A program made the translations under genes and the position numbers. A stretch of 64,000 nucleotides of DNA. Origin: Botryllus schlosseri. Taxonomy: Eukaryota. Below, one piece after another: positions 14,238 through 36,083 of the stretch (the stretch's first letter is position 1; the number at the start of each line of letters is the position of its first letter). The stretch lies in contig CM119372.1 in assembly GCA_051294905.1 (NCBI GenBank), positions 40,116,001-40,180,000 of the forward strand, read 5' to 3'. The notes beneath the pieces were generated by a model, which saw nothing but the letters and a program-made list of their open reading frames with translations, had not been told where the DNA came from and did no database searches.

Positions 14238-14311
14238 TGGCCAGTACGGGGATCGAACCCGCGACATTCGCGTTATTAGCACGACGCTCTAACCAACTGA
14301 GCTAACCGGCC
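14238..14311 (-). tRNA. tRNA-Ile (anticodon AAT)
   Basis: Reverse complement GGCCGGTTAGCTCAGTTGGTTAGAGCGTCGTGCTAATAACGCGAATGTCGCGGGTTCGATCCCCGTACTGGCCA folds as a cloverleaf; A and B boxes intact; followed by T-runs (Pol III terminator). Confidence 0.96.
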
Positions 14312-28990: not shown

Positions 28991-30941
28991 GTAACGTAGC
29001 CTACCTGATAAAGAGATCCAAAATGTGAATAACAACAGCAGCGGGTATAGAGAGCATTTTCTTCGCACACTGATAGGCGTTGCAATTCCACATTATACAA
29101 TACATCTAGGATTGGTCGCTATTGTGCTAAAGGGGCCAGTTTAGACGGATAATAAATACTATCTCTTCAAGTACCGGTATAAATTATTCGAAGCATAAAG
29201 CAACGACAATGCTGCCTATGCAAGTAGCTATCACATACCACAACTTAACGGAAAATAAATAACAGGTTAGGGAATGTATTTGCTCCGCATTACGTATTGG
29301 CCGTCGCTACTATATAATTCCTACAAGACAGTCAAGACCAGTGGTTCCCAAACTTTTTCGGTGTGAGGGCCAAATTTAGAATTTCAGAGTACGGTCGGGG
29401 CCGCAAGAATACTACGGCTATGAAACGGACCCAAACAGTCATCACGGCCATTTCGGAGTAGTTTGATTGCCCTGGCGATATTTCAAAACTGTACACTGTT
29501 TACCGCTACTTATCGGCTACATTGGGTGTCCGTTGAGTGAATCAGCTTTTCGCGCTTAAACGCGCGAAGTGCGATAAATTTTCTTTAGTTTCGTGACTGA
29601 ATCGGTCAATATGATCGGGAATTGCATGTAGGCTATTGCTATCAATTTTCATTCTGTCTCTGTTCACGTAATCTGATTTACCGGTAGAGCTGAGTGAGGT
29701 GTGTTTAAAAGGGTATAGGCCCCCTCAATAGTAATTAAACATCTCCGGGGGTATACCCGTTGGCAGGAACGTAACAGCACTTCGTCAGGACCCCGGGCTC
29801 CCGTAGGGTGATAAACTGACCCCGCATCACGTTGTTCGCTTTTGCCACGAAATTAAAGTTGTGCTGTTTAGTGAGACAGCGCGACGCGCGAATATTGCAA
29901 TAATTTATGATAAAATCGGTGAATAAGATCGGGAGTTGCATGGTTGTCCTCTTTGCCCAAGTAATCAGATTTACCGGTAGAGCTGAATGAGAGGTATCTT
30001 TGATACTGCAGACCCTGTAAAATTAAACATCTTCGGGCGGGCGGACCCCTAGGTATGACTTCTTTACATGATGTTATTTTGTGACCTCCTGTCTGCTATA
30101 TCAAAAAATGTAGAATTGCCCAAACCTACTAAACTGAAAGATCACACGATTTCAGATTGGTATCTCTTCACTGGCATATAATTTTCTTTCCTGCGGGATG
30201 GTACTTGTCTTGTGAGGTTTAGATTGCCAAGACAAGAACATTCGGTGCCAGTCATTTAGGCGCCTATATGGACAATTAAACCTTTCTCTATTTTGTTTAT
30301 ATAACGAAGTTTTTGATATTTCGAAGTTTTTGGTCAGCATAAAAGCAGTCCTTTACGGCCAAGGCTTTCTCGCTGCCGATCGTTCTGACACACTTCTTGG
30401 AGTCACATGTTACATGGCCTAAAATTTTATATGTCTTGGTGCATTGTGGTGCGGTCAAGGCAAACGCTGATGTGCCTATTTCTATAAATCTTGCGTATTT
30501 TTCTTAGGGAAGAGTACCCAATAATCAAGATATGTGGCGAATTGAAATCGCGCGGAGCGCTCAAAATTTTTGAAAAAGTTGCATAAATTTTCTAAAAATA
30601 CTCTATAATTTATGCTACTTCACGAAATAATTTTGGGCCCCCTTCGAGCTCGGCCCCCTCAATTGGGGGGTTTGAGGTGCGGCAGTTACGGCCCTTGTGG
30701 TGATTGTATAAGTGCTGATTACTGTAATTAGTTTACTTTTCTCTGTTCATTCCTTTCGTACCTCATTTGCTTATATCTGTGTTGTCGAGTGCATGTCCTA
30801 GTTCCGTGAAGTTGATTGTAGCCGAATTTCAGTTAATAAAAACCTAGAAAGCTGTCAAGCAGTTTCGTCTTCGTCTACCTACGCTTTCCTCGAAAGGTCA
30901 CCACAATTTTATTAACTGCTATTGACACGATCGACTCTGGA

Positions 30942-33900
30942 ATGGCTTTCTCTCAAGAGAAGTATATCCGCGTGCCGGTTCTAGATTTATTACCGAGCTC
31001 TCAAGACTCTTCGAAAGTATTCAACCACTTGGACAAAATGTTGTCGAGTTTCATATCGGCTGCAGAGTCTTCTTTGCCATCGACCAGCAGCACGGACACT
31101 GGACAAGAATCTAGCAGTGGCCGCCCCGGGGCAGTTCTCGATAAGTTGGCTATTTTGATTGGTTATATATCGCCATGCGTGTACGCTTTGATCGAAGATC
31201 ATGGCACGTTCGAATCTGCCATGGCACACCTAACCAAGTTATATCGGAAGAAAAAGAGCACCATATATGCTCGACATTTACTCGCAACTGCTAAGCAAGA
31301 CTCTGGTGAGACCGTCGCTGATTTCTCACAAAAGTTGATCGCTCTATCGCGTGATTGCAATTTTGAAACTGTTAATGCAGAAGTGCATAAAATGGAGGCC
31401 GTGCGAGATGCCCTAATTACTGGCTTGCGGTCCTCTGGCATTAGATTGCGTCTTCTCGAACATGATGAGTTAACACTCGAAAAAGCCATGCAGATAGCAG
31501 ACTCTCTTGAACGGGCGCAAGCGTTTTCCTCGTCCTATGTAATATCGCCTCCTACCGCTAACATGGTTCCGGGAAATCAGGAAATGCAGAAGACTTTACA
31601 TAGGCCTGATCAATCGCCTGTGTTGTCTTGCGGCTCTGAATTAGCTGCATTACAGAAGTCTCCTGAAAAAAAGAAGTGCTTATTTTGTGGCGGTTTCCAT
31701 ACGATGCTTCGCAAGTTTTGTCCAGCCCGAAACAGCGAATGCTCGAGATGTGGCCGACGGGGTCACTTTGCCAAAGTCTGCAAATTCAATTTGGCTTCGC
31801 TAGCCGGTGTACCCGGTTCTTTGAGGCGTTCGACGTTGGAAGTTTTTGTTGCTGAGAGGTTGGTCAAAGTACTTGTAGATTCGGGAGCATACGAATGCTA
31901 CATTAGCTCATCGTTCGCCAAAATTCTCAATCTCGTTCTTACTCCTCGGGATTACACTATTACCTTGGCATCAAAGTCATCTTCTGCTCGAGTAATTGGT
32001 CACGCATACGCGACACTTCGTATTGAAGATAAAGATTACGGCGCCACTCAATTATGCGTCGTTGATGAATTGTGCGCCGACGTAATTATCGGCTTGGAAT
32101 TCCTCAAACAGCATAAGAGAGTTATATTTGAATTCGGTGGGCCGAAGGGAGATCTCGTAATAGGACGCAAGCATTGTGCCGTAGCTGCCGCTAAAGTGAG
32201 TGATCCGCCTGAAATATTCAAGTTTGTCGATCCAGCTGTAAAGCCTGTAGCTGTGAAGTCGAGAAAGTACAGCTCAGAGGATCGATCTTTCGTACGGAGC
32301 GAGGTGTCGAAGCTCCTGGATGAAGGCGTTATAGAGAAGTCGGTATCTCCCTGCCGAGCTCAAGTTTTGGTAACCAAGGACCCTCGACATAAGAAAAGGT
32401 TAGTGATTGATTACTCGCGGACGATAAATCGACACACCCCTTTGGATGCTTATCCACTACCAAAAATTGATGATATTGTCAATGAAGTTGCAAAAGGTGT
32501 CGTTTATAGCACGATCGATCTCAAGTCTGCTTATCACCAGGTGTCTCTCTCTGCGGCCGACCGACCCTTCACAGCTTTTGAAGCTGATGGCTGTCTGTAT
32601 CAATTTCGTCGCCTACCCTTCGGCATCACCAATGGGGTCGCTGCATTTCAGCGGTTCATTGATAAATTCATAGCGGACAATCACTTGAAAGGCACAATAG
32701 CTTACTTGGATAATGTAACTATATACGGAAGGAATCAGAAGGAGCACAATGAGAGGCTCTCTTCGTTCATGACCGCCGCTGATTCAACAGGTCTGACTCT
32801 AAATAAAAATAAATGTGCGTTCGGGGTTTCGAAGCTCTCACTGCTCGGCCATCTGATATCCCACAATGATATTCGACCGGATCCGGATCATTTGCGACCG
32901 TTAACGCAAATGCCGGCTCCAAGCGATACTCGTAGTCTGAAGCGCTGTTTGGGCATTAGGGCTCTTCAAAAATGACTTTTTTTCTCAAATCGTACTGGCT
33001 ACTTGATAAAATTGTTAGGTTACCTAATTTAAGCCTACACACAAAATTTGGTTCAATTCCAGCCAGTAACCGCTTTGCTACAAGAGAAGAAAGTTTCTAT
33101 TTATTATCTAAAAATAAATAATGAAAAATTTGAAATTTTTCTGTTCACCCCATGAAAGTGTTAGGCTGTCTATAGAAACGATCCTCACCAAATTTGGTTC
33201 AATTCCAACCAGTGGAAGCGGAGTTATTGCCGTCGAAAAATTCGGATTTGAATAAAATAGTATTTACGGTGACCGATTCTTTGCTTATTTATTATAGTTG
33301 TGCTCACCGTAAATACTATTTTATTCAAATCCAAATTTTTCGACGGCAATAACTTCGCTTCCACTGGTTGGAATTGAACCAAATTTGGTGAGGATCGTTT
33401 CTATAGACAGCCTAACACTTTCATGGGGTGAACAGAAAATTTTCAAATTTTTCATCATTTATTTTCATTTAATAAATAGAAACTTTCGTCTCCTGCAGCA
33501 AAGCGGTTACTGGCTGGAATTGAACCAAATTGTGTGTGTAGGCTTAAATTAGGTAACCTAACAATTTTATCAAGTAGCCAGTACGATTTGAGAAAAAAAG
33601 ACATTTTTGAAGAGCCCTATTGGGCATGTTTTCGTACTATTCAAAATGGATTCCGTCCTTTTCCGACAAAGTGAAGCCCCTGTGTGAAAATGTCGTGTTC
33701 CCCTTGCTTGAAAAACAGAGAAACGCGTTTGAAACGTTAAAACAGAATCTACTTCGCGCCTGTTTGAGCTGTGTCTATGATGACGAACCGTTTCAAGTTG
33801 AATGCGATGCTTCCGAAGTTGCGATCGCCTCTATTTTAAGCCAAAAAGGCAGGCCTGTTGCGTTCATGTCTCGAACGCTATCAAAATGCGAAATGAAATA

Positions 33901-35298
33901 CCCCGCTGTAGAAAAGGAAGCTTAGGCCATTGTCGAGTCTCTTCGAAAATGGGATTATCTCTTGAACCGAAATGAATTTAAATTGATAACGGACCAAAAG
34001 GCATTATCTTTCATATTTCGAAAAGACCATCCGAGTAAGATTAAAAATGCAAAGCTCACTCTGTGGAAACTCGAGTTAAGTCCGCTAAAGTATCAAATAA
34101 TTCACCGCCCTGGATCCGAGAATATCGGACCTGATACTCTGTCTCGGGTTTGTTGTTCGTCCCCAGGCCAGCCACACATGAGCCTTCAAGAGATCCATGA
34201 AGCGCTGAGTCACCCTGGGATTCGACGACTTGATCACTTCGTCCGATCCAAGAATCTACCTTTTTCAATGGAGGACGTTAAAAGAACTTGTGCTAAGTGT
34301 CAAATATGTGCTAAATTGAAACCTCGGTTCTTCATGTCTAATGAAACGAACAAGTTGATAAAAGCTACTCGACCATGGAAACGTATTAGCATCGATTTCA
34401 AAGGTCCCGTTGATGGACTCAGAAAGTTTGTACTTGTTATTATTGACGAATGCAGTCGCTTCCCATTTGCTTATCCTTGTTGCGACATGACGTCGTCAAC
34501 GGTAGTCAATTGTCTCTCATCCTTGTTTTCGCTTGTCGGTGTACCGGAATATGTACACAGTGACAGGGGTGCCTCATTTCTATCTAAGGAAATCACCGAT
34601 TTCTTGACACGCAAGCGTATTGCCACCAGCAAGTCGACTCCTTATAACCCCACAGGCAATTCGCAATGCGAGAGGCTTAATCAGACTTTGTGGAAATCCG
34701 TCAAGTTGCTTTTGGAAAGTCGGAGATTGCCGGAGAGACATTGGGAATCGGTTTTGCCGGATGCTCTGCATTCCATCCGGTCGCTCTTATGCAGGGCAAC
34801 TAATTGTTCTCCTCATGACAGGTTCTTCAAGTTTGAAAGGAGATCCATGTTGGGCGACTCCATCCCCGACTGGCTTCTTCATGGCGGCACCGTACTTCTA
34901 CGAAATTTTGTGCGGAACAAAGGCGACCCCCTCGTTAATGAGGTAGAAATATTGGATGCCAACCCTAAATACGCCTTAATACGTTACAGAAACGGCGTAG
35001 AATCAACGGTTTCCGTTAAAGATCTCGCACCCTACCCTGTTTCTACAAAGTCTTCTGAGGCGCTTGAAAGAAAGGAAAAAGAGTTTTCCTCAGTCTGCGA
35101 TACAACGGAACCGTCATCCGATGAACTTACGACGTCGTCCAGCAGCGAAAAACATGGCGTTACTTGTAAAACATTTTCTCCGTGTCGCGACGAAGTAGTG
35201 GAGCCCAGTAGCAGCGTATAGATGTCGGGGAACCTCCACTGCGCCGATCCACGCGCATAAGGCGCGCTCCCGAACGTTACGGGCAAGGGACCTCGTAA
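30942..35298 (+). pseudogene. Single-frame gag-pol polyprotein, disrupted
   Basis: Zn knuckle CSRCGRRGHFAKVC, protease LVDSGA, RT (DLKSAYHQ, LPFGI, YLDN), RNase H (ECDAS), integrase HHCC and D-D-E. Lesions: MITE at 32957-33619, in-frame TAG at 33923-33925, and a late frameshift (terminal LRRSTRIRRAPERY motif is in another frame, stop at 35296-35298). Confidence 0.95.
32957..33619. mobile_element. Foldback hAT-type MITE inserted in pol
   Basis: Near-perfect palindrome with ~310-bp arms, termini TAGGGCTCTTCAAAAATG; 8-bp TSD TTGGGCAT. Removing it restores the frame CLGMFSYYSKW. Confidence 0.97.
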
Positions 35299-36083
35299 AA
35301 GCTAGTCCCTATTTTTCTTGGTGGGGGTGAATGTGGTGATTGTTGTGATTGTATAAGTGCTGATTACTGTAATTAGTTTACTTTGCTCTGTTCATTCCTT
35401 TCGTACCTCAGTTGCTTATATCTGTGTTGTCGAGTGCATGTCCTAGTTCCGTGAAGTTGATTGTAGCCGAATTTCAGTTAATAAAAACCTAGAATGCTGT
35501 CAAGCAGTTTCGTCTTCGTCTATACCTACGCTTTCCTCGAAAGGTCACCACAGCCCTGACTATAGGACTACCAATTATGCTGTTTTTAGCCGGCTAAGCA
35601 GTATACATCTCGACGTATTCAACCGTGAGTAACGTGTTGCACATCTAGTTATCATATGGTTACCATACGTCCTCTTTTAAGATGATTAGTCCTATTTTTT
35701 GATTTATATTAAAGTGTCCTCGGAGGACGCCAAAATGTCTTCTTTTTTGTGATTTTGTCTTTTTTTTGAGGATTTTGGTTACATATAGGGCCAAATTTGG
35801 CTGATATACATTAAGTCAGCAGTAGGAACGCTGCGGCGGCTATTTCGGAAGCTGCTGGACCGGAAAGTTGACCTTTTTTCAGTCAACCACCTGTTAATGT
35901 GAAAGAAAAACTGTATTTTCCGGGAGTTGAGCTTGTTTTTCATTTTTAGTCAAGCTACCACGAAGTGGGAAAAATTTACCATTTTTCAGGATTTTCCTCC
36001 GGTTTTGAAAGTTATCAATACCTATTTATATCTATAGCTAGGGTTCGTTCAACTGGAAAGTTAGGGCACATTGCATTGAAGCA

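Follow-up and report, generated by a model that had tools for sequence, protein, structure and literature searches.

A Ty3/Gypsy (Metaviridae) retrotransposon bounded by long terminal repeats (LTRs), located at 30696-35552 of a 64,000-nucleotide stretch of the Botryllus schlosseri genome (assembly GCA_051294905.1, contig CM119372.1, positions 40,116,001 to 40,180,000 of the forward strand; this whole stretch is called the window below), belongs to a lineage in which a fragment of the element's own RNA, and not a tRNA, probably primes minus-strand DNA synthesis. Such self-priming is an established mechanism for the element Tf1, as described in the accessible parts of PMC10085805 and PMC6317226. 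In the Botryllus element and its kin, it is well supported because two short arms, one inside the LTR and the other at the position of the primer-binding site (PBS), pair with each other and covary in all the relatives examined. The evidence consists of this complementarity, of its fixed position, of the covariation, of the lack of room for any other primer and of the footprint of a longer primer in one old copy.

The sequence CAGTTAATAAAA is found three times in the window by exact pattern search, twice on the forward strand at 30830-30841 and 35475-35486, that is in the 5′ and in the 3′ LTR, and once on the reverse strand at 30907-30918, where the forward strand reads TTTTATTAACTG. Its chance expectation is 0.04 matches and none of 100 shuffles reaches three. 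The 5′ LTR terminates in ...CACCACA, which is followed by a single base, A30906, and then immediately by TTTTATTAACTG. The complement is exactly 12 nucleotides (nt) long, with 30829 and 30919 unpaired on one side and 30842 and 30906 unpaired on the other. As a control, 75 other 20-nt windows from the interior of the element match the LTR in reverse complement over 7 nt at most (mean 5.45), against 12 for the window at the PBS position. The LTR arm (30830-30841, forward strand, recognized by reading the sequence and by the pattern search) is the candidate self-primer; its core is the 11 nt AGTTAATAAAA starting from A30831, and it holds an initiator-like TCAGTT motif (30829-30834) and the hexamer AATAAA (30835-30840). 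A first-pass annotation of this DNA, made from the letters alone, had already described the exact inverted match between 30907-30918 and both LTR copies, the two motifs within the LTR arm and the absence of a TGG-type PBS one base after the 5′ LTR, and all of these are borne out by the searches. Furthermore, the LTR end can be generated only by priming at the position where the complement lies, which supports self-priming.

The element belongs to a widespread and compact lineage of animal Ty3/Gypsy elements devoid of chromodomain, of about 4.2 kb, with one gag-pol frame of about 1200-1260 codons and LTRs of 80-270 bp. Among 8000 scored candidates, 1384 polyprotein homologues are found at E<=0.001. 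The 120 that were listed share 46-78% identity and are mostly 1100-1260 residues long; the 13 named ones come from Trichuris, Trichinella, Ciona (one homologue, 56% identity), Mytilus, aphids, a psyllid, a sea anemone, a copepod and a shrimp. The sister families compared below come from environmental DNA and were not taken from the host genome. They were located by scanning metagenome contigs with 37 aligned proteins of the lineage, which gave 80 loci with 40-61% identity over the best matching segment. Within 21 of these loci, 22 gag starts have at least 150 nt of upstream sequence and could be evaluated; three more lie too near a contig end, and no gag N-terminus was found in the remaining loci.

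The same architecture is seen at every LTR-gag junction that is present. The LTR ends in YCA and is followed by one spacer base, an A in nearly all cases, and then by an arm starting with TTT. This arm is the reverse complement of an LTR-internal stretch that ends in ...AAA directly before RCC. A uniform test finds at least 11 paired bases with at most one mismatch for 21 of the 22 evaluable gag starts, and the last one, L090, pairs over 10 of 11 positions. Further families with this arrangement of arm and PBS came from a scan of whole contigs. Except in L057 and L043 (spacer of T or GT), the 22 families all have the arm one base beyond the LTR. A YAYYWCAA-like octamer directly precedes the PBS arm in nearly all of them. 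The distance from the arm to the gag ATG, 23 nt in the window, falls to 0-4 nt in L066, L043, L039, L058 and others, so that a different PBS could not fit there; in the L045 and L063-L068 families, gag and the arm even overlap, judging from the estimated gag start.

The chief new support is comparative and includes the covariation of both arms. It was examined in 22 families (the window element and 21 loci), with one representative each and an alignment anchored on the last base of the LTR arm. At positions 1-11 next to the putative cut, 240 of the 242 cells are Watson-Crick pairs, one is a G:U pair and one is a mismatch, while the 22 families carry 17 different 11-mers. Positions 5-9 show three to four pair types each, and 109 of their 110 cells pair; permuting the arms among families lowers this number to 58.2 +- 4.6, and none of 5000 permutations reaches the observed value. 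For example, between L068 and L064, whose LTRs are nearly identical, a G>T substitution in the LTR arm is matched by C>A in the PBS arm. Matches of at least 11 nt between the arms of different families are limited to 3 of 132 pairs, all of them between families that have the same arm. A site complementary to a tRNA would not change in step with the LTR of the element itself. Pairing that is kept through different sequences is therefore predicted by self-priming and not by tRNA priming. The compensatory changes by which the first-pass annotation had thought its reading could be judged are thus present in the related families.

These data also bear on the idea that the inverted match has no role and arose by chance or through recombination. 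The arms are rich in A+T and short complements are common in such sequences, but three matches against 0.04 expected, the controls limited to 7 nt and a pairing that covaries in 22 families contradict this explanation, whose probability appears negligible.

Could the element nevertheless be primed by a host tRNA or tRNA fragment, with the two arms forming a leader hairpin involved in packaging, dimerisation or control of translation? Stems beside the PBS do exist in retroviruses, such as the U5-IR stem mentioned in the accessible part of PMC10085805. A PBS of the tRNA type starts with TGG, extends over 8-18 nt and complements the 3′ end of a tRNA or a tRNA half. The site in the window begins with TTTT. 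None of the 22 arms starts with TGG; they all start with TT, and in 21 the third base is also a T. When the PBS of the window is compared with 60 distinct host tRNAs to which CCA was added, the best complement is 6 nt, a weak test since these tRNAs represent only seven anticodon types. The Rfam tRNA search of the genome had indeed given mostly one tRNA-Lys cluster, to which 20 further places were added. The comparison with host tRNAs that the first-pass annotation had in view is favourable as far as the match length goes and only partial in its coverage. Moreover, the 3′ arm lies one base after the LTR end in almost all families and abuts the gag ATG in several, leaving no space for a primer site elsewhere, and it varies between families, with 17 cores, whereas tRNAs are conserved. 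A hairpin accompanied by tRNA priming is therefore considered very unlikely. No known RNA family is found by Rfam in 30600-31050.

Concerning the tRNA genes themselves, the window has a single one, a tRNA-Ile (AAT) gene on the reverse strand at 14238-14311. Elsewhere in the genome, a dense cluster of about 20 tRNA genes, all on one strand, lies at G000:C3:34488000-34508100. According to ARAGORN, nearly all the tRNAs in the fetched loci are tRNA-Lys (TTT).

The copies present in the host genome give a second view of the two arms. The genome search led to 41 matches (40 of 122 candidates were scored), and at least 19 copies in the genome span the LTR, the PBS and the leader. The family is young and multi-copy, and two of eight full-length copies have a single uninterrupted frame of 1261 codons. 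Among the 18 loci that have both LTR and PBS, 13 keep the 12/12 complement and four have one change. In L019, the most diverged copy (90.6% identity), there is one A>G change in each arm, and both changes leave G:U pairs. Both arms are unchanged in older subfamilies (82-86% identity), where U3 and U5 have diverged with indels. Two other cases were noticed in the host genome, L011/L023 and L013/L025, in which single changes of the LTR arm are common to both LTRs of one copy while the PBS arm is unchanged. Such a pattern would result from copying the first 11 nt of both new LTRs from the 3′ LTR of the parent.

One old copy, L169 (G000:C3:16043505-16043822, minus strand), carries a 25-nt perfect complement of the LTR of the family. 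It comprises the usual 12 nt and 13 more, these additional bases replacing the normal sequence downstream of the PBS. It is likely the footprint of a longer self-primer that was once copied during plus-strand synthesis, which would mean that an RNA derived from the LTR was used here. If so, the 5′ end of the RNA can lie at least 25 nt upstream of the cut.

We infer the RNA 5′ end, the cut and the priming itself from the sequences, and the following steps can be proposed. The stretch of the LTR transcript that ends in ...AAUAAAA (30831-30841, perhaps from a few bases further upstream) would fold onto 30907-30918. The RNase H of the element would then cut at the ...AAA | RCC border, as in Tf1, and the new 3′-OH would be extended across A30906 into U5. 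This border also terminates the homologous arm in the 21 other families, and the cut position is followed by RCC in 19 of the 22. In the window, the remainder of R/U5 between both arms extends over 30842-30898 (+), and the unpaired CACCACA of the LTR end together with the spacer base A30906 occupies 30899-30906 (+). The RCC can pair with GGY. In seven families including the window, this gives a helix that closes the U5 loop, with the LTR end and the spacer bulging out as 8 nt; the alternative is a local hairpin. In the window, ACCT at 30842-45 can pair with AGGT at 30895-98 and close the loop beside the primer duplex. No second helix flanking the primer-PBS duplex was found in these families; one adjacent helix, RCCU with AGGY, recurs.

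The first-pass annotation had proposed a transcript starting at A30831, whose first 11 nt would be the primer. This exact form of the mechanism deserves slightly less than even confidence. It is suggested by the conserved bases around the start of the core: the base located 11 nt from the cut is an A in 20 of the 22 families and the next one is a G in 21, after a T-rich run, which gives an initiator-like YYAGTY, and AG stands exactly 11 nt from the end of the duplex in 20 families. The shortest LTRs point in the same direction. L058, L100 and L062, three metagenome loci with whole LTRs of 80, 91 and 124 bp, have only 39, 34 and 44 nt of LTR upstream of the AG and an arm of exactly 11 nt; TATA-like runs were read by eye upstream of the AG. 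These LTRs are among the shortest for autonomous LTR elements.

Several points weigh against the proposal or against its exact form. The comparison with tRNAs covered a restricted part of the host set, and the families are related by descent, so that the covariation counts are not independent events. Furthermore, pairing does not stop at the core. Upstream of the conserved AG, 77 of the 110 cells at positions 12-16 still pair, whereas permutation gives 47.3 +- 4.3 and none of 5000 permutations comes as high, which makes an exact 11-nt primer uncertain; positions 17-20 pair at the baseline. In the window, 30796-30841 forms an imperfect duplex with 30907-30946 (-29.4 kcal/mol), which reaches back to about 30797 and ends near a second initiator-like site, CTAGTT with A30800, 28 nt after TATAT at 30772. 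Lastly, four raw-read RNA runs (X24, X20, X22 and X23) mapped on 30400-35800 give a depth of 0-5 in most interior bins, and these reads are too few to map either end of the transcript.

Part of these points would be explained by self-priming in which the primer is not the capped first 11 nt. The start could be located further upstream, for example at A30800, or the PBS could pair with the U3-R copy located towards the 3′ end of the RNA, either of the same molecule or of a co-packaged one. The excess of pairing at positions 12-16, the contiguous perfect arms, which are 11-18 nt long, the imperfect duplex of the window and the 25-nt complement of L169 are all compatible with such a primer. However, the AG placed after a T-rich run exactly 11 nt from the cut and the 11-nt arms of the three smallest LTRs speak for the shorter one. 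Moreover, when extension beyond the core is measured by duplex energy over all families, the own arms (-8.80) are not significantly better than cross-family arms (-8.32), 1045 of 5000 permutations being at least as good. A primer of this kind is rather unlikely.

Whichever the exact primer, the reading as first put forward has to be divided. The pairing of the PBS position with the LTR of the element, kept across relatives, stands; the start at A30831 and a role of the motif in polyadenylation are unproven. As for the latter, AATAAA or ATTAAA ends the arm in 11 of the 22 families, and in the others the hexamer reads GTTAAA, TTTAAA, GATAAA or similar. The arm hexamer may thus act as a poly(A) signal, but not throughout the lineage. 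In the RNA data, 3′-tag reads pile up at 35287-35467 and drop in the next bin (57.6 to 2.9 in X22). This fits with an RNA end soon after AATAAA and is far too coarse to count as evidence. The sole start or end site reported from the RNA reads, 33452, falls in a foreign insertion described below.

The closest known systems are Tf1/Tf2 of Schizosaccharomyces pombe and the other members of the Tf1/sushi group of chromoviruses (among them sushi-ichi, Maggy, Skippy, Cft-1 and Tj1). According to the accessible parts of PMC10085805, PMC6317226, PMC6934838 and PMC5006619, self-priming is regarded as a shared trait of the Tf1/sushi chromoviruses, and it has been predicted for two further groups, the Tcn1 clade and the TAR copia elements of plants. 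Experimental proof exists only for the Tf1 type, and prediction only for its chromovirus kin and one plant copia lineage, as far as the available portions of PMC6317226 and PMC10085805 state. Like the lineage of the window, Tf1/sushi elements have no tRNA-type PBS in the descriptions accessible in PMC10085805, PMC6317226 and PMC6934838, and a stretch just downstream of their 5′ LTR complements a stretch of the LTR at or near the RNA 5′ end. The core has 11 nt both in Tf1 and in the window lineage, which is a likeness of architecture. Tf1 also has a second helix beside the primer duplex (accessible part of PMC10085805), to which the RCC-GGY helix can be compared, although only one adjacent helix of the three-duplex “pretzel” of Tf1 recurs in the window lineage.

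Other features set the two groups apart. The window lineage lacks the chromodomain, a defining feature of Tf1/sushi. It is found in animals, encodes a one-frame polyprotein of about 1200-1260 residues and has LTRs down to 80 bp. The ...WAAA end of its arm is fixed and precedes RCC, and half of the families carry a poly(A)-signal hexamer in the arm. The automatic names of the look-alike clusters are “K02A2.6-like”, with one match named “transposon 17.6”, and not Tf2, which is only a weak hint. For the Tcn1 clade, from mosses and fungi, and the TAR lineage of plant Ty1/copia elements, the accessible part of PMC6317226 infers self-priming from LTR-PBS complementarity alone. Unlike the window lineage, both belong to other hosts and other clades, Tcn1 being chromoviruses and TAR being copia.

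Among animal elements, the Mag (A, B and C, including SURL and Jule) and Cigr-1 clades are compact Gypsy elements with short LTRs, as is the window lineage. The Mag C elements have the LTR end motif AYANAACA and a mean LTR of 174 nt in a training set (accessible part of PMC3601003). This motif and length for Mag C (SURL) resemble the ...CATAACA and ...TACAACA ends found in relatives of the window element, a lead given by that partial source and not a membership test. Likewise, the Ciona homologue hints at Cigr-1, again as a lead rather than as a test of membership. Nothing on the priming mode of the Mag and Cigr-1 clades is stated in the accessible parts of PMC6238403, PMC8556966, PMC8220671 and PMC3601003, and PMC2774666 does not mention Cigr, PBS or self-priming. 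A literature search that did not extend to papers in subscription journals found no report of self-priming in an animal Gypsy clade without chromodomain, which is no proof of absence.

The architecture known from Tf1 is kept by covariation in all 22 chromodomain-less families of animal type examined here, and homologues of the lineage are named in nematodes, tunicates, molluscs, insects, crustaceans and cnidarians. If self-priming is confirmed, the range of tRNA-independent priming would be widened. This would bear on the idea, raised in the accessible part of PMC3601003, that hairpin priming is ancestral for LTR elements. It would also explain the very short LTRs and the near absence of a leader in these elements, and it predicts that they escape from defences aimed at tRNA primer sites (such defences are reported in the accessible part of PMC7472051). 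Besides, tools for LTR annotation that require a tRNA-type PBS will misjudge this lineage.

A broader proposal can be put forward only tentatively, and remains more doubtful than not. Self-priming could be the general and ancient mode of one of the most widespread animal Gypsy lineages, independent of Tf1/sushi, with a single 11-nt module (an initiator AG..., the primer, a ...WTAAA poly(A)-type hexamer, then RCC) that would merge transcription start, primer and perhaps 3′-end formation. With such a module, LTRs could shrink to 80-124 bp and the elements would be freed from host tRNAs, and hence from silencing based on tRNA fragments.

The remaining features of the window copy are those of a Ty3/Gypsy element. 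The 5′ LTR (210 bp, 30696-30905, +) starts with TGTGGTGA and ends with TCACCACA, and forms a direct repeat with the 3′ LTR (221 bp, 35332-35552, +), which carries the second copy of the motif at 35475-35486; 98% identity over 183 nt is reported between them. An alignment with 29 other genomic LTR loci indicates that the 5′ LTR is devoid of a 9-bp duplication present in the 3′ LTR and in most other copies. Both LTRs have TG...CA ends, and a polypurine tract, GGTGGGGGTGAA (35320-35331, +), abuts the 3′ LTR, as G-rich tracts do in relatives. The target-site duplication GCCCT lies at 30691-30695 on the left, identical to the five bases after the 3′ LTR, at 35553-35557. RNA reads that stem from other copies of the flanking repeat run directly from 30690 into 35553, overlapping by 5 bases, as expected for an empty site, so that both ends of the element and the 5-bp duplication are confirmed.

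The coding region starts with the ATG at 30942, from which one frame covers gag, with a CCHC knuckle, protease and most of the reverse transcriptase (30942-32956, +). After a foreign insertion (32957-33619), it resumes with the end of the reverse transcriptase, RNase H and integrase (33620-35221, +), with an in-frame stop at 33923-33925. The order protease, reverse transcriptase, RNase H and integrase comes from Pfam matches. The best match in PDB is the Ty3 Gag-Pol polyprotein (E 6e-58), Ty3 being the sole Gypsy reverse transcriptase in this database. No chromodomain is found by Pfam at E<=10 in the last 261 residues of an uninterrupted copy, where the only match is the end of the rve domain. 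The earlier description of a Gypsy element without visible chromodomain therefore agrees with these results.

The copy of the window is dead, owing to the in-frame stop codon and to the insertion, 663 bp long, which resembles a miniature inverted-repeat transposable element and was delimited in the reverse transcriptase region by comparison with the uninterrupted copy L035. This insertion has long terminal inverted repeats starting with TAGGGCTCTTC..., an 8-bp duplication, TTGGGCAT, and internal direct repeats at 33363-33424 and 33509-33570. It is a high-copy repeat, with an RNA-read depth of up to about 120 and loose read ends at 32954/32957. The Gypsy copy is itself nested in another multi-copy transcribed repeat (30581-30695 and 35553-35800), and the RNA reads that map on this surrounding repeat come from other copies, as indicated by many fixed differences.

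The active site of the reverse transcriptase also shows an unusual variation. The second aspartate of the motif Y-x-D-D is usually regarded as catalytic. Of 37 aligned proteins of the lineage, 24, among them that of the window family, have Y-x-D-N at this motif (residues 621-625 of the protein P0001, at about 32700 in the window), and the other 13 have Y-x-D-D. The families with Y-x-D-N look recently active.

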